From a virus: a DNA stretch of 64,000 bases. Shown here piece by piece: positions 11,923 through 45,904 of the stretch; the stretch's first letter is position 1; each line of letters opens with the position of its first letter. A program made the translations under genes and the position numbers. The DNA is taken from positions 14,524-78,523 of the IMG/VR virus record IMGVR_UViG_3300045988_133226, one strand, 5' to 3'. The notes beneath the pieces are model-generated. The model ran no database searches and was not told the DNA's origin. It saw nothing but the letters and a program-made list of their open reading frames with translations.

Positions 11923-13017
11923 ATGAACCTACAGTTAGTAAAAACTGAAAATTTTAACGATTTATCGTGTGATTTTTATAGTTCTGAGGATGATATTTGG
12001 ATGACGAGAAATCAAATTGGAGAAGCACTGGAATATGCAGATCCAAGAAAAGCAATCCAAAATATTCACGACAAGAACAAGAATCGGTTTGTTGGAAAAT
12101 CAAGTGTCCTCAAAACGAGGACGGTTGATGGAAGGAATAGGGAAACAGTTGTATATAATGAGCTTGGAGTATTTGAGATATGTAGATTAAGTCGTCAACC
12201 AAAAGCAGACGCCTTTATGGATTGGGCATGGAATATTATTAAATCTTATCGTCATGGAAAATTAAGAACAGGAACTCCTGTAACAACAGTAGAGCAGTTT
12301 CTTACAGAACAGACAGAACTTATGAAGCAGATGGAAAGAAACAATGAGCGTCTGTACAAGGTTACTATTAAAGGATTTAATCAGTTGGCAGACATTGTTA
12401 AAGAAATGAAAGACGAACGGAAAGAATTGTATAAGCAGATTGGCAAACCTACGAAAGGTATTCCAGTAGTGGATACGGAAAATGCTATTGCAGAATACAA
12501 ACTTAATGAATGGAAATCCAACGTGTATTCTATCATTAATGATATTCTAAAAGAATCTGATGAATTAGGAACTACTACGAGAGATATTCTTAAAGAAACA
12601 TATAGGTATCTCACTAACACATATGGAATTGTGTGGGAACAGGATCGGAAAGAATATAAAGAGAAGTATAATATTAGCGAAAGAGGTAATGTACCAACGA
12701 TTGATCTTTGTTATGACAAGTACCCTGATCTGCTAGTCAATTCATTGGAAAAACTTCTGCGACAGTTCCGCAAAGAAAATGCACAGCCTGATTGGGAAGA
12801 AATGAAGATCAAGATTACCAATTATGCTAATCATATTGGAAATAAATCTAAAGGTGGAACTTCTGTTTATCGGAAAATCTACGCTAAGATGACAGAAAAT
12901 GGTGTTAACTGGGATGAGTATGCTCATGGATTGTCTAAATCTCAGCTTATTAAAACAAATGCAACTTTATATAATAGATTTTACGAAGCAGCGGTGGAAA
13001 TTATTTCAGAAGAATAG
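11923..13017 (+). CDS. Bro-N domain antirepressor-like protein
   Basis: N-terminus MTRNQIGEALEYADPRKAIQNI...VYNELGVFEICRLSRQPKADAFMDWAW is a typical Bro-N domain; RBS AAAGGAAGacgaagaATG. Confidence 0.6.
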   Translation: MNLQLVKTENFNDLSCDFYSSEDDIWMTRNQIGEALEYADPRKAIQNIHDKNKNRFVGKSSVLKTRTVDGRNRETVVYNELGVFEICRLSRQPKADAFMDWAWNIIKSYRHGKLRTGTPVTTVEQFLTEQTELMKQMERNNERLYKVTIKGFNQLADIVKEMKDERKELYKQIGKPTKGIPVVDTENAIAEYKLNEWKSNVYSIINDILKESDELGTTTRDILKETYRYLTNTYGIVWEQDRKEYKEKYNISERGNVPTIDLCYDKYPDLLVNSLEKLLRQFRKENAQPDWEEMKIKITNYANHIGNKSKGGTSVYRKIYAKMTENGVNWDEYAHGLSKSQLIKTNATLYNRFYEAAVEIISEE

Positions 13018-17356: not shown

Positions 17357-18307
17357 ATGGCAGCAACACAGTTTGAAGTTATTGAAACAGTAAACAATAA
17401 TAACGCAGAAGAATCTGAAACAAAGATTAAAAGACGCAAGGACGGAAGTCCTAAATGGACTCGATCTAACAAACAAAAAGGCGTATCATCTTTAGTGTAT
17501 CCGATTAAGAACAGAGAAAAATTTGCAGCCTTTAATGCATATTTTAGAGATCAGATTGATAAATCATATACAGAGTACAAACGATATGTAGCTGCTAGAA
17601 ATAATCTTTTGGTTGCAGTTGGAAATAATACAGCGTATCGTATTTCTGATATTGTTAGACTTAAATGGGGTGATTTATTAGACGATAAGACTCGTAAACA
17701 GGAAAAGAAAACAAAGAAATTCAGAACTGTATACTTTAATGATTTGGTAACTGAAGCAGTGGACATTTTCTTTGAAGCCGTTGCAGGAACTAAATATGAT
17801 GTCAAGATTGATGGCGAAGTGCCAATGGATGATTATGTTTTCGGAACATGTAAATCTGGCTCAGGACACATGACTGAAGCAAATGCCTTGGACTTTGTTA
17901 AAAAAGGTGCTAAAGCAGTCGGAATTGAGGATAACATTGGCACACATACATTGAGAAAAAACTTTGTATATTGGACACTTGTTGATCATAAGGACGACCA
18001 GAACGTATTGTATACGCTTATGAGATTACTGAATCATAGCAGTCCTGCAATGACGTTTTTATATGCTACAATTACAGAAGAGGAAACTCATGTATTGTTT
18101 GATGATATTGCTCAGACATATAAGGATATTATCAGCGGAGCATTTAACGGATTAAAGGAAAATGTTATTAATGTGAGTTATGATAGAGTTATGGAGATTA
18201 TCAAGTGTGCTTATGAGACAGGGAAAGATGATTCAGATAAAGACGATGGAGTGCATGAGGATAATATGCAGGCATTAAAAGAGTTGTTGGAAGGAGTTAT
18301 TTTATGA
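17357..18307 (+). CDS. tyrosine site-specific recombinase (integrase / Xer-like)
   Basis: box I RISDIVRLKWGDL, box II HTLRKNFVYWTL, LLNHSSPAMTFLYA with catalytic Tyr (R...HxxR...H...Y); RBS AGAGAGGAGagattatcATG. Confidence 0.65.
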   Translation: MAATQFEVIETVNNNNAEESETKIKRRKDGSPKWTRSNKQKGVSSLVYPIKNREKFAAFNAYFRDQIDKSYTEYKRYVAARNNLLVAVGNNTAYRISDIVRLKWGDLLDDKTRKQEKKTKKFRTVYFNDLVTEAVDIFFEAVAGTKYDVKIDGEVPMDDYVFGTCKSGSGHMTEANALDFVKKGAKAVGIEDNIGTHTLRKNFVYWTLVDHKDDQNVLYTLMRLLNHSSPAMTFLYATITEEETHVLFDDIAQTYKDIISGAFNGLKENVINVSYDRVMEIIKCAYETGKDDSDKDDGVHEDNMQALKELLEGVIL

Positions 18308-19992: not shown

Positions 19993-20009
19993 AAATGGAG
20001 AATATTATG

Positions 20010-21023
20010 AATAATAAAGAATTGATACAAAATTATATAGATTCTCACGTATCAGAATCACGTCGCCCAACATGGAATTGGTTATTAGATTCTGATATTG
20101 CGGATGACAATGAATCTGGGTTAACGTATGCACCAGGTACAATCCAAGAGGCTATATTATCAGATACTAGAGGTAAAAAAACCAAAAGTATGAATTCTAT
20201 TAAAAAAAGATATGACCAGCTCGTTAAACTATATACTTATGCATATGAACAAAATTACATTAAATATAATCCATTTGTTAATGATAAATTTATAAACTTG
20301 CAATTAGCAGTTGATATATATTTTTCAAATAGAGTTAATGTTAATTATGTTACACCAGATAAAATAAATGCGTTTATTTCGAATCTGATGTCGTGCAATG
20401 CATCAGCCGATACCAAATTGAATACTAGATTTCACATTGTGAGTTTATATAATGGGATAAATGGAAAGGAGTTAAGAAATCTAAAATTCTCAGATATTAA
20501 TCAAAATGATTTAACGATTTTTGGGAAACCAGTCTCCAAAGATTTTATCGAGACATTGAATGAATATAAATTGAAAATGGGAGATACGAATATATATGAT
20601 GATTTTGTATTAATACCACGAAAAAAATGTAATAATATAGAAGAATATCAAGCAGAGCAAAAGAGGATCTATAATAATGTGCAGTCTCAATTAGAATTAA
20701 CTGGTAACACTTTATCTTATGATAAATTGACAACCATTGATGTTATTAATTCTGGTTTTATACAATATTTAAAATCTAAAATGGATATCAAGGCAATTGC
20801 AGATTTATATTATATTAAATCAAAAGAAGGAATCGCACGATCTATAATCGCACGTCAATTTAGTGAAATTGCGATTGAATTTTATTATAATTATTATATA
20901 TCATATAGATTAAAAAAGAAACAATTTAGTGATCGTCAAACGGTAATCGGTAAAAGTATTGGTTACCTATATAAAGATGAGGACTATAAGAATTATCGTA
21001 TACATCAAATCATGGCAGAATAA
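20010..21023 (+). CDS. hypothetical protein
   Basis: ATG 20010 after GGAGaatatt; no catalytic recombinase motifs found despite weak box-I-like similarity. Confidence 0.45.
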   Translation, partial: NNKELIQNYIDSHVSESRRPTWNWLLDSDIADDNESGLTYAPGTIQEAILSDTRGKKTKSMNSIKKRYDQLVKLYTYAYEQNYIKYNPFVNDKFINLQLAVDIYFSNRVNVNYVTPDKINAFISNLMSCNASADTKLNTRFHIVSLYNGINGKELRNLKFSDINQNDLTIFGKPVSKDFIETLNEYKLKMGDTNIYDDFVLIPRKKCNNIEEYQAEQKRIYNNVQSQLELTGNTLSYDKLTTIDVINSGFIQYLKSKMDIKAIADLYYIKSKEGIARSIIARQFSEIAIEFYYNYYISYRLKKKQFSDRQTVIGKSIGYLYKDEDYKNYRIHQIMAE

Positions 21024-27794: not shown

Positions 27795-28631
27795 ATGATT
27801 AGTATTAATGGAGTCCCAGTTGTTCCAGAATCTTTTCCAGATGGAACGCAAAAAATTGATTTTTCGTTAGGCGTGATATCTCAAGAAATCATAGAAAACA
27901 AGACAGTGTATATCACATGGTTATATGAGTCAGATCAAGAGTTATTTTCTTTGTTGTGTATTTCTAAAAATATTAAAGAACATTTTCCGTGGTTACAACA
28001 AGCATTAGTGATGCCGTATATACCAAATGCAAGATTTGACAGAGTAAAAGAGCCAAGCGAATGCTTTACATTAAAATATTTTGCAGAAATTATTAATAGT
28101 CTTGGATTTGTAAGAGTTATTGTAACTGATCCACATTCCGATGTATCTACTGCATTGATTGATCATGTAGAAGTAATCCGTGGAGCATCATATATTACAC
28201 AAACTTGTAGCAAAGTCCTTAAAGCAGAACCATCAAGAAATCTCGTAATTTATTTCCCAGATAGCGGGTCACTAAAAAGATATTCTGAATTTGTATCAGA
28301 TGATTATCCGATTGTCTATGGAATTAAAAATCGTGATTGGAAGACAGGAGAAATTCTTGGTATTGAGATTCATGGAGATACAGATAAATTAGATGAGAAT
28401 ACAGCAATTCTAATGATTGATGATATTTGTAGTAAGGGTGGCACATTCTATTATGGATCAAAAGAATTAAACAAATACGGTTGTAAAGATATGTATTTAT
28501 ATGTTAGTCACTGTGAAAATACAATTCTTGATGGCGAATTATTAAAGGAAGATAGTTTGTTTAAAAAAGTGTATACGACACGTAGTATTTTTACAAAAGA
28601 GCATGAGAAAGTTGAGGTGTTAGATTTATGA
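27795..28631 (+). CDS. ribose-phosphate pyrophosphokinase (Prs)-like type I phosphoribosyltransferase-fold protein
   Basis: PRPP/ribose-phosphate binding loop MIDDICSKGGT (compare DDxxDTGGT of Prs); RBS tAAGGGGGTGataaagaATG. Confidence 0.65.
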   Translation: MISINGVPVVPESFPDGTQKIDFSLGVISQEIIENKTVYITWLYESDQELFSLLCISKNIKEHFPWLQQALVMPYIPNARFDRVKEPSECFTLKYFAEIINSLGFVRVIVTDPHSDVSTALIDHVEVIRGASYITQTCSKVLKAEPSRNLVIYFPDSGSLKRYSEFVSDDYPIVYGIKNRDWKTGEILGIEIHGDTDKLDENTAILMIDDICSKGGTFYYGSKELNKYGCKDMYLYVSHCENTILDGELLKEDSLFKKVYTTRSIFTKEHEKVEVLDL

Positions 28632-30097
28632 AACAGACAAACCCAATGTTATTAATTGATTTTTACAAAGCAGTTCATGCTGAAATGTTACCAAAAGGTA
28701 TTACAAAATCTGTTTCTTATTTTACTCCACGTATGAGCAGAGTAAAACGATGGAATGAAGTAGCCATGTTTGGATTACAAGGATTCATTAAAGAGTATTT
28801 GGTCGATTATTTTAATGAGTATTTTTTCTTTGAATATAAAAACAAAGCAATTGGTACTTATAAGACAGTAATGGATGCAACTCTTGGAGAAGGTACATAT
28901 GGATTACAGAAAATCGAAGATTTATATGATCTTGGCTATCTTCCAATTGAGATTAAGGCTCTTCCTGAAGGAACTTTAGTACCAATGCATGTGCCGATGT
29001 TTAGTATTGAGAATACACATAAAGATTTTGCATGGTTGCCACAGGCATTAGAAAGCTTAATTTCCGCAGAAATGTGGCATCCGATGATTGCTGCAACTGT
29101 TGGACATACATACAGACAGATTGTTAACAAGTTTTATGAAATGACTTGTGATGATGATATTCCAAAATCTAAGGCATTAGGGGCTTTCGATTTTCGTGGC
29201 GAAGAATGTTTACAGTCTGCGATTAAAGCAGGAGCAGGATGGTGTTTATCATTCTTAAATACAGCTACGGTTCCAACAATTTCATATTTAGAGAGAAATT
29301 ATAATTGTGATTGTACGAAAGAACCAGTTGCTTTTGGTAGTCCGTCAACGGAACATGCAGTAGTTTGTAGCAATTATGCAATTGATGGTGATGAAGAGAC
29401 TTTAATCAAAAGATTGCTAACAGAGATTTACCCAAATACAAGTTTTTCTGCGGTATTGGATTCATATGATTATTGGAATGTCGTAGAAAATATTCTTCCA
29501 AAGCTTAAAAATGAGATTATGAATCACAACGGATGTCTTCTTGCCAGAGGTGACTCAGGAGATTGTGTAGACGTAGTAACCAGAACAGTATTCAAATTAT
29601 GGGAAGAGTTTGGTGGAACTACAAATACCAAAGGATATAAAGTATTAGATCCTCATGTAAAAGCAATTTACGGAGATTCAATTACAGTGCAGAGATGTGA
29701 GCAGATTTATGACATCTTAGAGAAAAATGGATTCGCAGCAAACAATGTTGCACTTGGCGTTGGATCATTCTCATTCCAGTGCATCGAAGAAGATGGAGTT
29801 TTAAAACCATTTACAAGAGATACATTTAGCAGTTGTATTAAAGCAACGTATTGTGAGATTGATGGCAAACCATATCCAATTTTCAAGAATCCAAAAGATG
29901 GCGGATTTAAGAAATCTCAGAGAGGTTTATGTCATGTCTATACAGGATCAGACGGTAAATTGACATTTAAAGATGGATATACTTCAGAAAATCTTCCAAT
30001 GAATAACCTGCTTGAGACAGTATTTAGAGATGGCAAATTGGTAAAAGAACAGTCATTACAGGAGATTAGAAGAGTATTAAATGAAGGAGAATTTTAA
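28628..30097 (+). CDS. nicotinamide phosphoribosyltransferase (NAMPT/NadV) family protein
   Basis: LDSYDYWN, ARGDSGD, KGYKVLDPHVKAIYGDS and FKNPKDGGFKKSQRG run parallel to DSYDIYN / RPDSGN / KGYKLLPPYLRVIQGDG / FKDPVADPNKRSKKG of NAMPT enzymes; ATGA overlap with the upstream gene. Confidence 0.7.
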   Translation: MKQTNPMLLIDFYKAVHAEMLPKGITKSVSYFTPRMSRVKRWNEVAMFGLQGFIKEYLVDYFNEYFFFEYKNKAIGTYKTVMDATLGEGTYGLQKIEDLYDLGYLPIEIKALPEGTLVPMHVPMFSIENTHKDFAWLPQALESLISAEMWHPMIAATVGHTYRQIVNKFYEMTCDDDIPKSKALGAFDFRGEECLQSAIKAGAGWCLSFLNTATVPTISYLERNYNCDCTKEPVAFGSPSTEHAVVCSNYAIDGDEETLIKRLLTEIYPNTSFSAVLDSYDYWNVVENILPKLKNEIMNHNGCLLARGDSGDCVDVVTRTVFKLWEEFGGTTNTKGYKVLDPHVKAIYGDSITVQRCEQIYDILEKNGFAANNVALGVGSFSFQCIEEDGVLKPFTRDTFSSCIKATYCEIDGKPYPIFKNPKDGGFKKSQRGLCHVYTGSDGKLTFKDGYTSENLPMNNLLETVFRDGKLVKEQSLQEIRRVLNEGEF

Positions 30098-38935: not shown

Positions 38936-40564
38936 ATGGCTAAAAAACAAAATAAAAACACGATGCAGATCAATAGAAAAATTACTTTAATTCCAGTTGC
39001 AAGTGACAATGATGGTTGGAAGAAGAAGATGAATATATATCTTGAAAAATTTTATTTTGACAAGAAAATTAAAGCCAAAGAAAGACAAATCAAAAATACG
39101 AGTAAACCAGAAAGAAAAGAAGAATACAAACAGCAGCTTACAGAATATAAAAAGCAACAAGAACAGTTCTTAAATGGTGAGCTTGAAGATTATACAAAGC
39201 AGATGGTTATGAGTTATACATATGATTTGGTAAGAGACTGTATGGAAAGTGAAGCAAGACAGAAGAATTTCATAATGTCTTATATGTTCTCAGAGATGAT
39301 CAGAGAAAAGGTCTGCTACTTAAAAAACAAGAAAGAAAAGGAAAAATGGGTAAATGACAATATCAATGTTGCATTTAGAGTTAAAGGATCACCAAAGGGA
39401 AGTATCTTTGACGATGTTGAGATTTATAGTCCATTAAGAGCATTGAGTATTCAGGGATATACTCAGGAATTAAAGGGGAGAGTTAAGAAATTCGCCACTG
39501 ATGGTGGGTTAGATGGGAAGTTGGCAGTCGATAATTATAAATTAGATTCGCCATTTCATATGTCAAAGCAAGGATTTGATATTGTTCATGAATATGAAGA
39601 CTTGACAGAGCTTAAAAAGAATATTGGTAAATCAAGTTGTGAAATATATGTGAATCTTGGCAACGGTGGCGTTCCTACATTCGCAAGATTCCAATTAGAT
39701 TTTGGGCATAAAGGAAATCGAGAAGAGTTAATTTCTACAATTACAAAAGTATTTACTGGTGAATATAAAGTATGCGGAAGTTCAATTCAGATTAATAAAA
39801 AGAATAAGATTATATTAAATCTTGGACTTGAAATTCCAAAAAGACTTACTGAATTAGATGAAAACACGGTAGTTGGAGTCGATCTTGGGTTAGCAGTTCT
39901 AGCTGTATGCTCTTTAAATAATAATCAGTATAAGAAAGAGTATATTGGTGACGGAGAAGCTTTTGTAAAACAGCGAGGCAAAATTCAAAAAGAAAAACAG
40001 AGATTACAAAAAGCATTAAAACTTTCAAAGGGTGGACATGGAAGAAAAAGAAAAATGTTAGCCTTAGAAAGATTCAAGGAAAGAGAAGCAAATTTTGTAA
40101 ATACTTATTGTCATAGAATCAGTAAAAAAGTTGTTGAATATGCACTTAAGAATAATGCCAAATATATCAATATTGAGAATTTAAAAGGATATGATTCTAG
40201 TAAATTTATTCTGAGAAATTGGAGTTTTTACCAGCTTCAGCAAGATATTACATATAAAGCAGAAAGATATGGTATTGAAGTAAGAAAAATCAATCCTGCA
40301 TTTACTTCTCAAGTATGTAGTTTCTGTGGACATTGGGAATCTGGACAGAGAATAAATCAGAAAACTTTTAAATGCGGGAATCCAAATTGCAAGAGTCATA
40401 ATCTTAAATTTTTTAACGCTGATTATAATGCTGCAAGAAATATTGCAATGTCAACATTATTTACGAGTGATAAATATAAGTTCGGAGAAGAATCTTTGCA
40501 AAAGGCAGCAGACTATTACGGAATTGACTTAGAAATTGATTCTGACGATCAAGAAATTGCTTAA
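38936..40564 (+). CDS. compact type V CRISPR effector-like RuvC nuclease (Cas12f/TnpB-like, 542 aa)
   Basis: RuvC-I TVVGVDLGLAVLA (Asp316, nt 39881-39883); RuvC-II KYINIENLKG (Glu414, nt 40175-40177); INPAFTSQVCSFCGH...CGNPNC zinc finger; RuvC-III FFNADYNAARNIA (Asp496, nt 40421-40423); RBS AAAGGAGtgaagtagatATG; followed by CRISPR mini-arrays on the same strand. Confidence 0.75.
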   Translation: MAKKQNKNTMQINRKITLIPVASDNDGWKKKMNIYLEKFYFDKKIKAKERQIKNTSKPERKEEYKQQLTEYKKQQEQFLNGELEDYTKQMVMSYTYDLVRDCMESEARQKNFIMSYMFSEMIREKVCYLKNKKEKEKWVNDNINVAFRVKGSPKGSIFDDVEIYSPLRALSIQGYTQELKGRVKKFATDGGLDGKLAVDNYKLDSPFHMSKQGFDIVHEYEDLTELKKNIGKSSCEIYVNLGNGGVPTFARFQLDFGHKGNREELISTITKVFTGEYKVCGSSIQINKKNKIILNLGLEIPKRLTELDENTVVGVDLGLAVLAVCSLNNNQYKKEYIGDGEAFVKQRGKIQKEKQRLQKALKLSKGGHGRKRKMLALERFKEREANFVNTYCHRISKKVVEYALKNNAKYINIENLKGYDSSKFILRNWSFYQLQQDITYKAERYGIEVRKINPAFTSQVCSFCGHWESGQRINQKTFKCGNPNCKSHNLKFFNADYNAARNIAMSTLFTSDKYKFGEESLQKAADYYGIDLEIDSDDQEIA

Positions 40565-40633
40565 ATTATCGACTGTATATGGCATGTTTTGGATGAGGTG
40601 CCGAACTTCATCGATCATAGAATATATGATTAT

Positions 40634-40669
40634 GCCAAAAGTGAGGTGTGAAAATGCACTCACTAAAAT
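40634..40669 (+). ncRNA. conserved hairpin element, copy 1 (GCCAAAAGTGAG-loop-CTCACTAAAAT); candidate array leader or tracr-like RNA
   Basis: one of four copies with an invariant 6-bp stem AGTGAG/CTCACT and a variable 11-13 nt loop, each 23-57 nt upstream of a mini-array. Confidence 0.4.
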
Positions 40670-40725
40670 TTGTGTAATTGAATAAAGCATAAAGTTTTGC
40701 GTTGTATACATAATAAAGATTTGAG

Positions 40726-40827
40726 GTTTTAGAACAATTGAAATTTACACAGATACAAAACAGTGCAGGAATGTTGATACCAGATAGTAATGTTTTAGAA
40801 CCACTAGACATTATATAATCATAAAAT
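40726..40827 (+). CRISPR. CRISPR mini-array 1: 36-nt repeat / 30-nt spacer / 3'-degenerate terminal repeat
   Basis: R1 GTTTTAGAACAATTGAAATTTACACAGATACAAAAC (40726-40761); spacer AGTGCAGGAATGTTGATACCAGATAGTAAT (40762-40791); terminal repeat GTTTTAGAACcactagacatt... keeps only the 5' part. Confidence 0.6.
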
Positions 40828-40994
40828 ATAGTATTAAACAAACATTTACGTAAATATTAAGAATATTTTAGTGTTTACGATAATATATGCAGGCTGATAA
40901 AGCCTGTTGTAGTTGCACAAAGTATTGTGCATGGCACGTTTCGAGAAATATTATCGCCAATATAGTATTTCTGGTCACGGAGTATCGTGACTGT

Positions 40995-41028
40995 GCCAAA
41001 AGTGAGATTATATGATACTCACTAAAAT
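40995..41028 (+). ncRNA. conserved hairpin element, copy 2
   Basis: GCCAAAAGTGAGattatatgataCTCACTAAAAT. Confidence 0.4.
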
Positions 41029-41070
41029 GTATGTTGTTAGGTCTTTATATTGGTCAGTATGGGATTTGAG

Positions 41071-41238
41071 GGTTAAGACCTATCAAAAATAACATACGTA
41101 CGAAACGCATTTATCGGGTCATAAATCAATAACTTTGGTTAAGACCTATCAAAAATAACATACGTACGAAACTTGATTGAATCATCCTTTGAGATGTTAG
41201 GCAGTCAAGACCTATTAAAAAATAAAAGATGTGTTTGG
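41071..41238 (+). CRISPR. CRISPR mini-array 2: two identical 36-nt repeats, two 30-nt spacers, degenerate terminal repeat
   Basis: GGTTAAGACCTATCAAAAATAACATACGTACGAAAC at 41071-41106 and 41137-41172; spacers GCATTTATCGGGTCATAAATCAATAACTTT and TTGATTGAATCATCCTTTGAGATGTTAGGC; terminal repeat AGTCAAGACCTATTAAAAAAT... is 3'-degenerate. Confidence 0.75.
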
Positions 41239-41311
41239 TTAAATTAAAATTGCACATTATGTGTATGGTGTGTTTTGGAGATTATATCTCGTTCATCGAA
41301 TAGATGGATAC

Positions 41312-41346
41312 GCCAAAAGTGAGGTTTGGATAACACTCACTAAAAT
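41312..41346 (+). ncRNA. conserved hairpin element, copy 3
   Basis: GCCAAAAGTGAGgtttggataacaCTCACTAAAAT. Confidence 0.4.
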
Positions 41347-41385
41347 CTATGTGATTATGTAACAAAGTTAGACAAAAGAATTTGG

Positions 41386-41487
41386 GTTTGATACTTATTA
41401 AAAATTACATAGGTACAAAACGTTTGTGTTTTATAGTCATGCAATGAAGCAGATTGATACCTATAAAAATTGTATTTTAATACATGG
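41386..41487 (+). CRISPR. CRISPR mini-array 3: repeat / 30-nt spacer / degenerate repeat
   Basis: GTTTGATACTTATTAAAAATTACATAGGTACAAAAC (41386-41421); spacer GTTTGTGTTTTATAGTCATGCAATGAAGCA; terminal GATTGATACCTATAAAAATTgtattttaatacatgg. Confidence 0.55.
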
Positions 41488-41530
41488 CGTGTTCTGGAGA
41501 ATTTATCTCGCTTATTTATTTGATAAGTAC

Positions 41531-41565
41531 GCCAAAAAGTGAGACCGAGTGGTACTCACTAAAAT
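41531..41565 (+). ncRNA. conserved hairpin element, copy 4
   Basis: GCCAAAAAGTGAGaccgagtggtaCTCACTAAAAT. Confidence 0.4.
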
Positions 41566-41587
41566 CTATGTTAATTGAATATTTGAG

Positions 41588-41689
41588 GTACAAGACCTAG
41601 CAGATTTAACATAGGTACAGAACCCCTCATCTGTAAGGATTTCATCTAACTCAGTACAAGACCTATCAAATTTAACAAAATCAAAAGGA
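41588..41689 (+). CRISPR. CRISPR mini-array 4: repeat / 30-nt spacer / degenerate repeat
   Basis: GTACAAGACCTAGCAGATTTAACATAGGTACAGAAC (41588-41623); spacer CCCTCATCTGTAAGGATTTCATCTAACTCA; terminal GTACAAGACCTATCAAATTTAACAaaatcaaaagga. Confidence 0.6.
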
Positions 41690-41869: not shown

Positions 41870-42217
41870 ATGAACCACTTCTTATATATTGAATCACGGG
41901 AAGAAGAGAATACATCCCTCGATTCTAAACGTGTTTTATTAAATGAAGAAAATTACAAACATATTATTTCATCATTAGATCATTATCCACCGACGGCAGA
42001 TGAAGTTAAGAGAGCAATTTGTATTTTGATAGGACGATTGATCTATAGAAGCGTTTGGAATATGGAATCTGATATTGATAGTTTAAATATGAGTTTATCC
42101 CCGCCAAAAGAAATGACGGTTGCAGAAATCGAAAAAGAACTCGGTCATAAAGTAAAAATTGTAGAGGAGAAAGAATGCCAATGGCAAAAAAGAAACAAGG
42201 AATGTCGTTTGAAATGA
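41870..42217 (+). CDS. hypothetical protein
   Basis: RBS GGAGAGatataATG. Confidence 0.45.
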   Translation: MNHFLYIESREEENTSLDSKRVLLNEENYKHIISSLDHYPPTADEVKRAICILIGRLIYRSVWNMESDIDSLNMSLSPPKEMTVAEIEKELGHKVKIVEEKECQWQKRNKECRLK

Positions 42218-42486
42218 TGATGCAAAATATGGAAATTAATCCAAGACAATTGTATCGTCGTAGTTCGTGGAAGAAGACACGAACAACTTATGATTATGTG
42301 TTTATGATGTGCGAAGAAGAATTAAATGAGATTATTCCATTTGATAAAAAATATAAAATGAAACCACTCTTATGTAGAGACCAAAATGGAGTTATAACAT
42401 TGGGATGGTTGCCTACACAAGAGGATATTTTCGCAAATGATTGGGTTGAGCAAGGATGGGATTTTAACAGTAAAAGGAAGAGGTGA
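42175..42486 (+). CDS. hypothetical protein
   Basis: RBS GAGGAGaaagaATG; overlaps the upstream gene by about 40 nt. Confidence 0.4.
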   Translation: MPMAKKKQGMSFEMMMQNMEINPRQLYRRSSWKKTRTTYDYVFMMCEEELNEIIPFDKKYKMKPLLCRDQNGVITLGWLPTQEDIFANDWVEQGWDFNSKRKR

Positions 42487-42494
42487 GTAATTAA

Positions 42495-42779
42495 TTGAAT
42501 TTTATAAAAGCAATGACTGCAATAAAAAAAGACAAAACGACTATAAGAAGAGGCATTTGGGGAAAGGAAAAGTATTTGAAAATTTATTCGTCAGAATTAA
42601 CTAATGTTTATTTTGAGTGTAATGATATGGGTGAATATAAGCCAGATTCAATTATTTTTTTATTTGATAAAGAAAACGCAGAAGTTTGGATACCTCTTGC
42701 GGAAGATGTATATGCAGATGACTGGGAAATATATGTTGAGTCAATTAATAAAGGTGAGCAGATAAAGGAGGAAAAATAA
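42495..42779 (+). CDS. hypothetical protein
   Basis: TTG start after AGGAAGAGGTGAG (or ATG at 42513). Confidence 0.4.
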   Translation: MNFIKAMTAIKKDKTTIRRGIWGKEKYLKIYSSELTNVYFECNDMGEYKPDSIIFLFDKENAEVWIPLAEDVYADDWEIYVESINKGEQIKEEK

Positions 42780-43735: not shown

Positions 43736-44539
43736 ATGTCAAGGAAAAATACAAGAGAAATTGAACTTGCTTTTAGTAAAAACAGAGATCCAGATTGGGA
43801 AGCCGATGTGGAAATTTATAGAAGAAGAAAGTTCGAAGTAGTGCGTGGTATTTGTCTGGGAGATGAGTTTGCTGAAATTGAGTCTTTAGAATACAAAAAT
43901 TGTGACGAGTTAGATGAAATGTATTATTGTTTTGATTATAATTTAAAAATACTTATGCAGTCTTATTTGTATGAATATACAGATTATGTGCCAATCGAAA
44001 CAATGCATATTACATCTCCTGCAATATTGTGTTGTGATGAAATTGTATTAAAAAACGGTGAGAAAATTTCTATTGATAACATATGTATTGATAAATCAAA
44101 TGGCAATGAAGTTTATAAATTATATTCTAATAGTACATATACAGATGATGTATATTATGAATCTACTAAAGCATTAGTTTATGAATTGGCTAGTAAAGAT
44201 GTTTGCAAGGCTATACATATAATGAAAGATATGATGGACAAAGCGTATATAAAAGCAAGAAATGAACGAAGCATACATCCTTTTATTAGCCACTTGTTTA
44301 ACGACCCTCCAATTCCATGTATTAAAAATAAATATTCTATACATGATTTAGTAATGGGTACATTAAAATGCAGTGGTGATATTTATAAAGAAATAAACAA
44401 AGAAGTCCCAAATGCTATAGATATGATTGTGCCTCATCCTGGAAGACATGCAGAGTATTATTTTGGGTTAGATTATACAGATGAAGTAGAGCAATTTATT
44501 AAAGAACAGGAGGCTAAGAAATGTGAAGAAACTAAATGA
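43736..44539 (+). CDS. hypothetical protein
   Basis: RBS tAGGAGtgtgatgtATG. Confidence 0.5.
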   Translation: MSRKNTREIELAFSKNRDPDWEADVEIYRRRKFEVVRGICLGDEFAEIESLEYKNCDELDEMYYCFDYNLKILMQSYLYEYTDYVPIETMHITSPAILCCDEIVLKNGEKISIDNICIDKSNGNEVYKLYSNSTYTDDVYYESTKALVYELASKDVCKAIHIMKDMMDKAYIKARNERSIHPFISHLFNDPPIPCIKNKYSIHDLVMGTLKCSGDIYKEINKEVPNAIDMIVPHPGRHAEYYFGLDYTDEVEQFIKEQEAKKCEETK

Positions 44540-45074
44540 TGAACAGCGAAAGCTGATTGAAGATAATTATTCTTTGATTTGGCATTTGCATGAGAAGTAT
44601 TTTACAAAATTTAAAGATTTTGATACATATATGGATCTTGGTCGTATGGCAATTTGCAAAGCAGCATTAAAATGGGATGAGTCTAAAGGTAATTTTGGGA
44701 CGTATTTTAGATGGGTATTACAGTCAGAAATTAATAAATATTATATAAAATGGCATAGCCCAACAGAGAAAATGAACAGAAATGCGGAATCATTGGATGC
44801 ACCTGTTGACGAAAGAGTTGACGCAGAAGAATTAACAATTGGTAGTTTGCTTGTGAGTAACGATGACATAGAGAGTCAAGCACTAACAACAGTATATTAT
44901 CAAGGAGAATTTAACAAATTATCAGACAAGCAGAAGAAAATTATATATATGTTACTTGATGATATTGAGCATAAATACATAGCCAAAGAATTTGGAAAGA
45001 GTATTCAATGGGTAAGTTGGCAACTTGGTAATATTAAAAAAATAATGCATAGGGCAAAGGCGGTGAGATCATGA
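44523..45074 (+). CDS. sigma-70 family RNA polymerase sigma factor (compact, region 2 + region 4)
   Basis: region 2-like LIWHLHEKYF...DLGRMAICKAALKWDESKGNFGTYFRWVLQSEINKY; C-terminal HTH IAKEFGKSIQWVSWQLGNIKKIM; RBS cAGGAGGctaagaaATG. Confidence 0.6.
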   Translation: MKKLNDEQRKLIEDNYSLIWHLHEKYFTKFKDFDTYMDLGRMAICKAALKWDESKGNFGTYFRWVLQSEINKYYIKWHSPTEKMNRNAESLDAPVDERVDAEELTIGSLLVSNDDIESQALTTVYYQGEFNKLSDKQKKIIYMLLDDIEHKYIAKEFGKSIQWVSWQLGNIKKIMHRAKAVRS

Positions 45075-45904
45075 CAATTGAAGAAGTGAAAGATTACATA
45101 AACTCGTCTACAGAGTATGATTTTTTGCGAGATTATCCTCATAAAATCGCTTTTCTCACACTAGGTGGAAGTTATGCTTACGGAACAAATACAGAGGATT
45201 CTGACATTGATTTACGTGGTGTTTTCCTTAGTGATAAAAGAGAGATTTTGTTGAATAATAATCAGAACAATCTTGAGAAGACCGACGATCATAAAGATGT
45301 TGATACTGTGCTACATTCGCATATTAAGATGATCAATATGCTTGCAAAGGGTAATCCTACGTTTTTAGAGCTGTTATATTTTGCGCCAGACCGCTATTTA
45401 TATGTATCTGATATTGGTATGGAACTGATCAAAAATAGAGATATGTTTTTATCTAAGAGAGTTTATCATGCATATAAAGGATATATATGCGATTGTCTGA
45501 CTCGAACGAGTTTTAAGTATTATAAAAATAAAGATTCAGAGAAAGAAAAGCAAAAGGCAGAACGATACGCTAATAAATCAATGATGCATGCAGTTCGATT
45601 ATTGTTGCAGGGTATTGAATTATTACATAACGGAACAATGTTTGGGTCTATGGACGACATAGGAAAAGATCTTGTAAAGATCAAAGAAGGGTATAATAGT
45701 ACGCATAAAACATATAGATTTAGCAAACACAATGAGCATACAGAATATTTCCCAAATCAGTCATACGATGTTTTTATTGAAGGATTACTTTATCAATTTG
45801 ATTATGATTATATGAATACTGATTTGCCAGACGAACCAGACTGGGATCGTATCAATAACTTCTTGATGACAACAAATGAACGAATTGTGAGAGGAATGGT
45901 GTAA
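45071..45904 (+). CDS. polymerase-beta-superfamily nucleotidyltransferase-fold protein
   Basis: N-terminal LTLGGSYAYGTNTEDSDIDLRGVF fits the h-G-[GS]-x9-13-D-h-[DE]-h NTase signature; 277 aa (KNTase/LinB size range). Confidence 0.5.
   Translation: MTIEEVKDYINSSTEYDFLRDYPHKIAFLTLGGSYAYGTNTEDSDIDLRGVFLSDKREILLNNNQNNLEKTDDHKDVDTVLHSHIKMINMLAKGNPTFLELLYFAPDRYLYVSDIGMELIKNRDMFLSKRVYHAYKGYICDCLTRTSFKYYKNKDSEKEKQKAERYANKSMMHAVRLLLQGIELLHNGTMFGSMDDIGKDLVKIKEGYNSTHKTYRFSKHNEHTEYFPNQSYDVFIEGLLYQFDYDYMNTDLPDEPDWDRINNFLMTTNERIVRGMV

Follow-up and report, generated by a model that had tools for sequence, protein, structure and literature searches.

Tandem guide cassettes beside a Cas12f-type nuclease gene in a large gut phage and their probable role in conflict with mobile elements

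Directly 3' of a gene for a 542-aa nuclease, the phage sequence studied here carries four tandem cassettes, each made up of a tracrRNA-like scaffold (~105-150 nt) immediately upstream, on the same strand, of its own mini-array of one or two 30-nt spacers. These cassettes and the neighbouring gene are probably a phage-encoded CRISPR-Cas12f guide region, type V-F-like, that serves conflict with a competing or parasitic mobile element. Such a role seems most likely because spacer S1 matches an integrating element of ~18 kb which related phages also target. All positions refer to the window, the whole 64,000-nt stretch of DNA that was analysed. The preliminary description had seen a single locus of five 30-nt spacers at 40762-41653. 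The spacers lie exactly there, on the + strand, each after a 36-nt repeat and each with a sequence found once in the window, but the four tracrRNA-plus-mini-array cassettes and the adjacent Cas12f gene had been missed.

A nuclease gene and four guide cassettes

The locus is carried by a large gut phage. The phage must be large since the identical nuclease and array sit on a 198-kb contig (ENA ERZ24911481 NODE_55), and the locus is placed in a phage genome by viral contigs from IMG/VR (142 and 167 kb) with 93-96% identity. Phage genes in the window include phrog_1735, a DnaB-like helicase, a sigma factor, BRO-N and Pol III alpha. The identical five-spacer array and the exact nuclease protein were also found on two contigs from other samples (L022 and L023), and three shorter contigs match the locus up to their ends inside the array. 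No Cas1 adaptation gene was detected by the Pfam or PHROGs scan among the 17 other window ORFs of at least 277 aa (64 of ~198 kb).

The nuclease falls within the size range of type V-F effectors (400-700 aa) and, like them, has a C-terminal RuvC domain interrupted by a TNB zinc finger. Its catalytic triad is intact (D316, E414 and D496; motifs GVDLG, NIENL and NADYNAA) and the zinc finger CxxC...CxxxxC was located by motif search. Pfam recognizes Cas12f1-like_TNB (PF07282, 8.9e-19) and OrfB_IS605 (PF01385, 2.4e-12). The closest solved structures are those of Cas12f (9nzo/9nzr, 1.8e-64, and also 8hr5), among which residues 1-248, the N-terminal half of the protein, have no significant match. 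Among the NCBIfam models, the protein passes guided_TnpB, a broad subfamily model (160 bits for a cut-off of 100), and does not pass the curated subtype model CRISPR_Cas12f2 (119.8 bits for a cut-off of 450). The position of the gene is syntenic in diverged phages.

A full repeat precedes every spacer and a degenerate one closes every array (Table 1). Because two identical repeats, with a 66-nt period, occur only in cassette 2 and similarity among the repeats of the other cassettes is 67-78%, the locus consists of four mini-arrays and not of one array. Across the related loci, the guides are 29-31 nt long and repeat-bounded on both sides, with up to four per array.

Table 1 Positions of the nuclease gene and of the elements of the four guide cassettes in the window
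Feature	Position	Strand	Basis or remark
Cas12f-type (type V-F-like) RNA-guided nuclease, 542 aa	38936..40564	+	Pfam, NCBIfam, solved structures, motifs
Cassette 1 tracrRNA-like scaffold	40579..40725	+	Alignment, RNAalifold, pair counts, motif scan; RNA ends predicted; 5' GTTTTG (pairs with repeat 3' end CAAAAC), hairpin GCCAAAAGTGAG..CTCACTAAA, anti-repeat TTTGTGTAA
Cassette 1 repeat, 36 nt	40726..40761	+	
Spacer S1	40762..40791	+	Match to 3' end of terS-like gene, ~18-kb integrative element family
Cassette 1 terminal repeat	40792..40827	+	3' half degenerate
Cassette 2 tracrRNA-like scaffold	40931..41070	+	Alignment, RNAalifold, pair counts; 5' GTTTCG (pairs with repeat end CGAAAC), anti-repeat ATGTATGTT and TAGGTC
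Cassette 2 repeat, copy 1	41071..41106	+	
Spacer S2a	41107..41136	+	Target not found
Cassette 2 repeat, copy 2	41137..41172	+	Identical to copy 1
Spacer S2b	41173..41202	+	Target not found
Cassette 2 terminal degenerate repeat	41203..41238	+	
Cassette 3 tracrRNA-like scaffold	41265..41385	+	GTTTTG pairs with CAAAAC; anti-repeat TCTATGTGA
Cassette 3 repeat	41386..41421	+	
Spacer S3	41422..41451	+	Target not found
Cassette 3 terminal degenerate repeat	41452..41487	+	Last bases overlap cassette 4 scaffold start
Cassette 4 tracrRNA-like scaffold	41484..41587	+	GTTCTG pairs with CAGAAC; anti-repeat TCTATGTTAA
Cassette 4 repeat	41588..41623	+	
Spacer S4	41624..41653	+	Target not found; 21-nt partial match judged chance
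Cassette 4 terminal degenerate repeat	41654..41689	+	

Two anti-repeat segments of each scaffold co-vary with the diverged repeat of their own cassette. In all four cassettes the 5' GTTYYG of the scaffold pairs with the repeat 3' end CRRAAC, the window variants being GTTTTG/CAAAAC, GTTTCG/CGAAAC and GTTCTG/CAGAAC, and an anti-repeat of the form xTATGTxx pairs with the ACATAG core of the repeat. The same anatomy is found in 44 cassettes from >20 related loci, and every one of the 44 scaffold hairpins detected on the + strand of these phage loci is followed by a mini-array repeat at a distance of 24-121 nt. The RNAalifold consensus structure has four helices, of which helices 1 and 4 join scaffold to repeat and show compensatory changes. 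In this consensus 94.5% of cells are paired, against 30-45% when the partners are slid; compensatory changes are present in 18 of the 30 pairs, and the observed values were reached by none of 500 shuffles. The fold predicted for 41484-41643 has an energy of -44.6 kcal/mol (z = -3.95). At the sequence level, the locus has an adjacent CRISPR array and a tracrRNA-like anti-repeat pairing with the repeat, as in type V-F. The scaffolds match no Rfam family, and a scan of the locus for promoter and terminator consensus sequences gave nothing above shuffled expectation; the cassettes are presumably transcribed and processed to RNA ends such as those proposed in Table 1. A complementarity of 16/17 between the 3' end of S4 plus its repeat and cas12f (39847-39863) was treated as chance because it runs on into the repeat. 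The layout with one tracrRNA per mini-array appears to be undescribed.

Spacer variability and the target of S1

In phages with 93-96% identity, scaffolds and repeats are retained and entirely different spacers occupy the same positions, also in different numbers; the spacers are the only hypervariable segments between these phages. This variability, the recurrence of the anatomy in related loci and the identical arrays on contigs from other samples show that the pattern did not arise by chance. Since the flanks are kept while the spacers differ, the latter are variable guides and not conserved sequence. This bears out the initial view of them as real spacers of a phage-borne CRISPR locus, and for the same reason the caveat attached to it, namely that they might be sequence conserved in related phages, does not apply.

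S1 matches the 3' end of a small-terminase-like (terS-like) gene, just upstream of terL, in six variants of the ~18-kb element (L036, L038, L039, L040, L041 and L046). The match extends to 25-27 of the 30 bases, the mismatches are synonymous in all six variants, all of which encode the peptide LLSGINIPA, and each S1 base is present in at least one of them. The chance expectation for such a match is ~1e-5 for the DNA searched. Inspection of the protospacer flanks for a PAM, as had been suggested, revealed TTTG or TTTA on the 5' side in 6/6 variants. No perfect S1 protospacer was found in the sampled elements; the best one differs at three bases, including PAM-proximal position 3, so that cleavage of the sampled variants by the S1 guide is uncertain. 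Another candidate, a 23-nt match in a sugar-biosynthesis metagenome contig (flank GCTA), was rejected because the terS of the element explains S1 far better.

The element encodes an integrase, a helicase-like protein, a scaffold protein, a major head protein, TerS-like and TerL proteins and a portal, and sits in tRNA-linked sites of the chromosomes of gut Clostridia (Lachnospiraceae-like hosts), which the phage may also infect. The target of S1, though a mobile element, is thus integrated in host chromosomes. The same element is matched, in its att/integrase region, its capsid gene and an Ig-like gene, by spacers that three or four further lineages of this phage family carry: 29/30 for L001/L002 (flank TTTA), 29/30 for L030, and 28/30 and 29/30 for L033a and L033b. 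Together with S1, four or five spacers of relatives match the element. At the att junction of the element, a truncated tRNA-Leu contains the start of the L001/L002 protospacer; the other assigned protospacers are wholly inside mobile elements. In a more distant relative (L003), one spacer matches Heliusvirales phages at 29/29 bases, with a T-rich flank. The T-rich 5' motif expected of type V-F can be written here as TTTR, from two independent protospacers only (S1 and L001/L002). The preliminary description had proposed that the spacers target competing elements or host genes; for S1 a mobile element is indeed matched, and ordinary host genes are without support.

For S2a, S2b, S3 and S4, none of the collections searched yielded a credible target. 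The database BLAST by which the targets were to be identified gave nothing at E <= 10 for any of the five spacers against GenBank phages and PLSDB plasmids, and exact 19-20-nt seeds in IMG/VR gave nothing for S1, S2a, S2b and S3. For S4, the IMG/VR search returned a 21-nt match followed by 0/9 bases, with flank TCTG, in a 76-aa ORF, which was judged chance. Bacterial genomes were scanned for one spacer, S2a, and its 23-nt match in a trehalose-synthase-like gene of a Pseudobdellovibrionaceae MAG (flank ATCG) was judged in the same way. A peptide-level translated search of S2a-S4 against the element and the Heliusvirales loci returned nothing. The self-targeting check advised at the outset was negative: the best non-self matches in the window have 9 or more mismatches, as do those of shuffled controls, and 19-20-nt seeds found none in two related IMG/VR genomes. 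Among the relatives, the second L001 spacer matched only its own array in IMG/VR, and nine further spacers gave only one match to GenBank phages (E = 2).

Proposed mode of action and alternative explanations

Type V-F Cas12f proteins act as an asymmetric homodimer on one guide RNA and cleave double-stranded DNA. In the phage, the shared Cas12f would receive one guide from each scaffold:repeat duplex, and the complex would cut DNA bearing the spacer sequence beside a 5' TTTR motif. With S1 as guide, it would be directed to the terS-like gene of the ~18-kb element, at the 3' end. During infection the element would most likely be destroyed, and the chromosome of the lysogen with it, from which the phage may benefit. 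S2a, S2b, S3 and S4 are presumably aimed at unsampled elements of the same kind.

A sharper version of this explanation, which does not contradict it, is that the element lives as a parasite on the phage family, as a tail-less satellite of the capsid-forming (cf-PICI-like) kind, and that the cassettes are a counter-measure, to be compared with ICP1 against PLE. Capsid-forming PICI-type satellites have an integrase and their own capsid, portal, TerS, TerL and head-tail adaptors, and lack tail or holin genes. The gene content of the element goes in this direction, with no match for a tail tube, tape-measure or baseplate protein, and so does its size: its contigs cluster at 17-20 kb and, in L040, host genes begin ~5 kb past the portal gene. 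The element is also targeted by spacers that at least four phage lineages carry independently of one another. Nevertheless, the element also encodes a 299-aa collagen-like protein with weak tail-fibre matches as well as several unannotated ORFs, so that it could be a minimal autonomous phage. Furthermore, the head-tail adaptors and alpA-type regulator of cf-PICIs were not identified in it, and tblastx found no genes shared between the element and the available phage DNA. The satellite version is therefore put forward tentatively. More speculative again, and rather doubtful as a whole, is a picture in which a human-gut phage lineage of ~140-200 kb fights one specific ~18-kb capsid-forming satellite with Cas12f, its guides being tracrRNA-repeat-spacer genes swapped by recombination and its single nuclease accepting several diverged scaffold:repeat pairs. 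In that case, the self-contained guide genes would be natural single-guide cassettes, recombination between phages or cassettes would renew the guides without an adaptation module, and the system would be the gut counterpart of ICP1 against PLE.

Mobile-element conflict could be set aside if the main use of the spacers were chromosome cleavage or gene silencing in the host and the element match were incidental. The S1 and L001/L002 targets do belong to elements that are inserted in bacterial chromosomes, a target is assigned for one of the five spacers only, and host-targeting spacers have been reported in huge phages (PMC7162821). Yet no assigned protospacer lies in a host core gene, the nearest case being the one that starts in tRNA-Leu at the att junction, and the bacterial-genome scan with S2a gave only a partial match without a T-rich flank, which makes mainly host-directed cutting unlikely. 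It is very improbable that the cassettes have decayed, or that they are cr-like regulatory RNAs whose guides are fixed. The tiny arrays, the absence of adaptation genes among those seen in the window and the identity of the five spacers on contigs from other samples of the strain would fit decay or regulation, but spacers are completely replaced between close relatives, protospacers in foreign elements share a consistent 5' flank, scaffold:repeat pairing is kept by compensatory change and the nuclease motifs are intact. The least credible alternative, which we consider hardly tenable, equates the scaffold-plus-guide units with TnpB omega-RNA-like units serving the mobility of the nuclease gene. 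The guided_TnpB score and the contiguity of scaffold and guide on one strand recall such units; against this, the guides are repeat-bounded and several may share an array, the nuclease gene keeps its place in diverged phages, neither IS ends nor TnpA were seen, and the guides match foreign elements instead of the flanks of the locus.

With mobile-element conflict as the preferred explanation, an uncultured large gut phage is tied to a named opponent in a conflict open to test, for which the TTTR motif and the protospacers provide a starting point for biochemical assays. A single Cas12f seems to accept four scaffold/repeat versions that co-vary, a natural set of variants that deserves attention in work on miniature genome editors and where multiplexing has to avoid repeated sequence.

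Comparison with known systems

The closest known nucleases are those of the type V-F Cas12f group (Cas12f-MG119/Al3Cas12f, OsCas12f1, RhCas12f1 and CnCas12f1; PMC13186708; PDB 9nzo, 9nzp, 9nzq and 8hr5), likewise small and built on a RuvC and a TNB zinc-finger domain, from which the phage protein departs in its unmatched N-terminal half and its Cas12f2 score below the NCBIfam cut-off. Type V-F Cas12f (Cas14) systems also share a long structured tracrRNA with two sites of pairing to the repeat, a guide located 3' of that repeat and a T-rich 5' motif. In contrast to them, the present system is phage-borne, shows no cas1 among the window ORFs scanned and, in place of one tracrRNA and one array, has a separate tracrRNA copy for each of its four diverged mini-arrays. 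TnpB omega RNA resembles the cassettes in that scaffold and guide are contiguous on one strand beside a TnpB-like nuclease, whereas here the guides lie between CRISPR repeats, vary by strain and match foreign DNA, with no transposon context. A contiguous scaffold and repeat-bounded guide stands between the omega-RNA layout and the split tracrRNA/crRNA, which bears on the origin of type V.

Among viral systems, the compact CRISPR of huge phages (Al-Shayeb et al. 2020, PMC7162821) includes type V-F variants with short arrays, spacers against other phages and no Cas1, Cas2 or Cas4; the sections consulted do not mention a per-array tracrRNA, and here the targets are assigned to a specific element family across several lineages. 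Virus-borne mini-arrays (PMC11656645) also have 1-2 spacers aimed at other viruses, but they use host-type repeats and host Cas proteins, while this phage supplies its own nuclease and tracrRNAs. In ICP1 (Seed et al. 2013, as cited in PMC7162821), a lytic phage likewise turns its own CRISPR-Cas, of type I-F, against an interfering chromosomal island, the V. cholerae PLE; that system is class 1 and has adaptation genes, and the target here is a candidate satellite. Cas12r-CRISPR of the Thermus Lalka phages (bioRxiv 10.64898/2026.04.20.719267) is again a phage-encoded type V system, with spacers directed mostly at integrative elements whose attachment sites are tRNA genes. It has been proposed to serve mobile-element conflict and was validated experimentally, whereas the present system was read from sequence and differs in nuclease family, host and environment. 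With such precedents for phage CRISPR directed at other mobile elements (PMC7162821 and 10.64898/2026.04.20.719267), the locus is a gut example of a known theme, the use of CRISPR by phages against rival or parasitic mobile elements, and extends the idea of phage CRISPR against integrative elements or satellites from Vibrio and Thermus to the human gut.

The Cas12f-type nuclease and its guide cassettes

The guide region is composed of four cassettes, each pairing a tracrRNA-like scaffold with a mini-array, and begins immediately past the stop codon of a Cas12f-type nuclease gene. The preliminary description had the positions and 30-nt length of the five spacers exactly right; each spacer has a single copy in the window. 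The nuclease matches the Cas12f1-like TNB and OrfB_IS605 domains and the NCBIfam guided_TnpB model, but fails the curated Cas12f2 model (119.8 vs 450 bits). It resembles solved Cas12f structures (best 9nzo/9nzr, E = 1.8e-64, then 8hr5), with no significant similarity to solved structures over residues 1-248. RuvC motifs (GVD316LG, NIE414NL and NAD496YN) and zinc-finger cysteines are present. No Cas1 match was found among the 17 other ORFs of at least 277 aa scanned in this 64-kb window of a ~198-kb genome.

Features of the window (positions in the window)
Feature	Position	Strand	Remarks
Tyrosine-recombinase/integrase-like ORF	17357-18307
Tyrosine-recombinase/integrase-like ORF	19995-21023
Ribose-phosphate pyrophosphokinase gene	27795-28631
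Nicotinamide/nicotinate phosphoribosyltransferase gene	28628-30097
NAD synthase gene	30115-30885
tRNA-like gene	33626-33763		138 nt; 81-nt insertion in anticodon arm
Cas12f-type nuclease ORF	38936-40564	+	542 aa; domain, family-model and structure matches
ATTTGAGG motif or close variant	40719-40726
S1	40762-40791	+	30 nt
ATTTGAGG motif or close variant	41064-41071
S2a	41107-41136	+	30 nt; cassette 2
S2b	41173-41202	+	30 nt; cassette 2
ATTTGAGG motif or close variant	41380-41386
S3	41422-41451	+	30 nt
ATTTGAGG motif or close variant	41581-41588
S4	41624-41653	+	30 nt
Tad2-like ORF	42175-42486		PF11195
Tad2-like ORF	42495-42779		PF11195
Sigma factor gene	44523-45074
RlaP-type nucleotidyltransferase gene	45071-45904

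A 36-nt repeat lies directly 5' of each spacer, and the repeat that follows each array's last spacer has a decayed 3' half. Only the two repeats of cassette 2 are identical; between cassettes the repeats are 67-78% alike. The ATTTGAGG motif abuts the 5' side of every first repeat and never that of internal repeats, in the window and in about 40 cassettes of related loci (L001-L033). It resembles a leader-repeat junction and, judging from this placement, may be a junction signal, which has a bearing on how spacers are renewed.

Each first repeat is preceded, some 105-150 nt upstream, by a conserved element, ATGGCRTGTTYYG ... GCCAAAAGTGAG-loop-CTCACTAAAAT-xTATGTxx. The consensus structure, built from an alignment of 13 scaffold units, some from the window and the others from four relatives, has four helices. 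Helix 1 joins the scaffold 5' segment GTTYYG to the six bases at the repeat's 3' end, and helix 4 joins the post-hairpin segment (the anti-repeat) to the repeat's ACATAG core. The scaffold segment is GTTTTG in cassettes 1 and 3, where the repeat ends in CAAAAC; the corresponding sequences are GTTTCG and CGAAAC in cassette 2, GTTCTG and CAGAAC in cassette 4. Some relatives have repeats ending in AAAGG, and the matching scaffolds carry CCTTT. Standard pairs fill 94.5% of the alignment cells, against 30-45% when the partners are slid by 1-3 columns, and in 18 of the 30 pairs both partners have changed. Not one of 500 shuffles reached any observed pairing measure, a count which is not a probability because the aligned sequences are related; the slide control is more telling. 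When 20 nt of spacer are included, cassette 4 gives a fold of -44.6 kcal/mol (z = -3.95), and the anti-repeat:repeat duplex appears in its minimum-energy structure. A motif scan of related phage loci found 44 + strand copies of the scaffold hairpin, each located 24-121 nt 5' of a repeat in a mini-array; no further copy was found on either strand of the window. In these relatives, the mini-arrays flank the nuclease gene on both sides.

Scanning the cassettes for promoter and terminator consensus sequences gave nothing above shuffled expectation. A conserved TTGCAC-type sequence upstream of the cassettes could be a phage-specific promoter. A sigma factor gene and an RlaP-type nucleotidyltransferase gene lie a few kb downstream. 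In L022, a contig from another sample with the same nuclease and array, the two small ORFs just 3' of the cassettes carry a Tad2-like annotation (anti-Thoeris family), so that the setting looks like a counter-defence neighbourhood. Elsewhere, the window carries three NAD genes in series; phages use NAD-rebuilding gene sets of this kind against NAD-depleting defences. The tRNA-like gene scores 46.4 bits with the Rfam tRNA model and is not reported by ARAGORN. Two integrase-like ORFs are also present in this ~198-kb phage.

Spacer turnover among related phages

The preliminary description had considered that the spacers could be conserved sequence shared by related phages. This is contradicted by two phage contigs in IMG/VR (142 and 167 kb), which share 99% nuclease identity and 93-96% DNA identity with the window. 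Their scaffolds and repeats are preserved nearly base for base, yet the sequence at every spacer position is unrelated to the window's, and spacer and cassette numbers vary. The spacers are thus variable guides. Distant syntenic relatives (50-63% nuclease identity) also carry scaffold-plus-mini-array units with other spacers.

The exact nuclease protein was found on 11 contigs from other samples, one of them of 198,472 bp. Of five of these contigs, L022 and L023 keep the whole array with every spacer intact; the remaining three (Logan contigs L024, L025 and L026) end within it, inside the first 36-nt repeat copy of cassette 2. Since this repeat is the only one in two identical copies, these ends seem to reflect a break in assembly at the repeat, not heterogeneity in the population. 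The spacers thus stay constant within the strain and turn over at a genome divergence of a few percent. In L001, one of the two close IMG/VR relatives, a cassette-2 scaffold is fused at TATGTT to a cassette-4-type repeat array (12063-12154, compared with window 40995-41623), and cassettes 3-4 are absent. This hybrid points to recombination between cassettes and shows, from its sequence, that recombination can also move guides.

Targets of the spacers

The five spacers have no other match in the window, which excludes self-targeting there, and BLAST searches of GenBank phages and PLSDB plasmids gave no target at E <= 10. Exact 19-20-nt seeds of S1, S2a, S2b and S3 are absent from IMG/VR. Partial matches in the 21-23 nt range (S4 in a viral contig, S1 in an ENA contig, S2a in a Pseudobdellovibrionaceae MAG) were attributed to chance, as each diverges completely 1-2 nt past the seed and lacks a T-rich flank. 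The 16/17 complementarity between the S4 3' end with the first repeat bases (41640-41656) and cas12f (39847-39863) was also judged fortuitous because the stretch runs into the repeat.

As a control of the IMG/VR scan, a cassette-1 spacer common to the relatives L001 and L002 recovered both of their own contigs, which shows the scan to be sound. It also found L036 (IMGVR_UViG_3300045988_162445, 18.9 kb), with 29/30 identities and a 5' TTTA flank. In the region L036 80-147, this protospacer straddles the point where a truncated tRNA-Leu, of which the 5' half alone is present, meets the integrase-gene arm of a ~18-kb element, which is the element's attachment region. A mismatch-tolerant search of all retrieved sequences then revealed a match of S1 to L036 (26/30, 5' flank TTTG), on the opposite strand. 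The site falls in the 3' end of a 141-aa TerS-like ORF, which terminates shortly after the large-terminase gene begins. Homologues of this ORF gave five more element copies; across all copies S1 matches at 25-27/30, always with TTTG or TTTA upstream. The inspection of protospacer flanks proposed earlier yields TTTR as a candidate PAM, seen at two independent protospacers.

Two explanations may be considered for the imperfect S1 match. Chance would be expected to give about 1e-5 matches with up to four mismatches in all the DNA searched. Moreover, the mismatches are all synonymous, every variant encoding LLSGINIPA, and each of the 30 S1 bases is found in at least one variant. As the terS genes are mutually only 87-94% identical, 3-5 differences in 30 nt are ordinary divergence. 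These observations identify the match as homology; S1 therefore derives from an unsampled variant of the terS-like gene. The earlier suggestion that the spacers target other mobile elements therefore holds for S1; S2a, S2b, S3 and S4 are without a target, giving nothing at up to seven mismatches in the element copies and no peptide-level match in a subset of these copies, Heliusvirales or the partial-hit loci.

Spacers of other lineages match the same element: one from L030 (62% nuclease identity) its major head gene (29/30 and 28/30, 5' flank TTCA), two from L033 (60%) its integrase gene (27-28/30, ATTG or GTTA) and its Ig-like/YomX-like gene (29/30, ATTG), and one from L009 a small ORF (24/30, borderline, ATCCC). 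One of 68 relatives' spacers (L003 9737-9765) matches Ca. Heliusvirales phages, 29/29 in six and 28/29 in two. Its intergenic site (PV036410.1 48529-48557, flank AATTTTT) is conserved across the eight phages, for which Lachnospiraceae, Agathobacter, Coprococcus and Dorea are the hosts on record.

The element encodes an integrase, an Ig-like protein, a head scaffold, a major head protein, a ResIII helicase-like protein, the TerS-like protein, TerL, a portal and a CopG-type antitoxin, plus a few unannotated ORFs, one of which codes for a collagen-like protein that weakly matches tail fibres. No tail tube, tape-measure or baseplate genes were recognised, and its contigs cluster at 17-20 kb; this leaves a minimal temperate phage and a capsid-forming satellite as its two possible identities (judged against part of the cf-PICI criteria, PMC10085698). 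In an 89-kb bacterial contig, host genes start about 5 kb past the portal gene. The product of the adjoining MetQ gene shares 95% identity with proteins attributed to uncultured Eubacterium and Anaerostipes, and a Lacrimispora TerS homologue reaches 59%, so the host is a gut clostridial, Lachnospiraceae-like bacterium. No homology was detected between the element and the phage DNA examined.

Proposed role and comparison with known systems

The best-supported scenario, alongside the observed cassette anatomy, covariation, spacer turnover, flanked protospacers and intact catalytic motifs, is an attack by the Cas12f cassettes on rival or parasitic elements. The phage would express Cas12f and the four scaffold-guide units; each scaffold would pair with its own repeat, loading the 30-nt guide or a trimmed version; and the complex would cut TTTR-flanked targets in elements of the shared host. 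Transcription, processing, cleavage and the benefit to the phage are what we infer here.

The two-duplex pairing of scaffold and repeat is shared with known Cas12f guide RNAs (PMC13186708). Unlike usual Cas12f loci, this one has one scaffold per mini-array. The literature searched did not describe a locus in which every mini-array has a tracrRNA of its own that co-varies with diverged repeats, which is weak evidence of novelty. The classic case of a phage opposing a satellite is that of ICP1 against PLE. For huge phages, PMC7162821 describes type V-F variants with short arrays and no adaptation genes, whose spacers aim at other phages or host genes. The spacers of a Thermus phage type V system are mostly directed against tRNA-integrating elements (10.64898/2026.04.20.719267, a 2026 preprint). 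Given these precedents, the biological role of the present system adds a further case to a theme already known.
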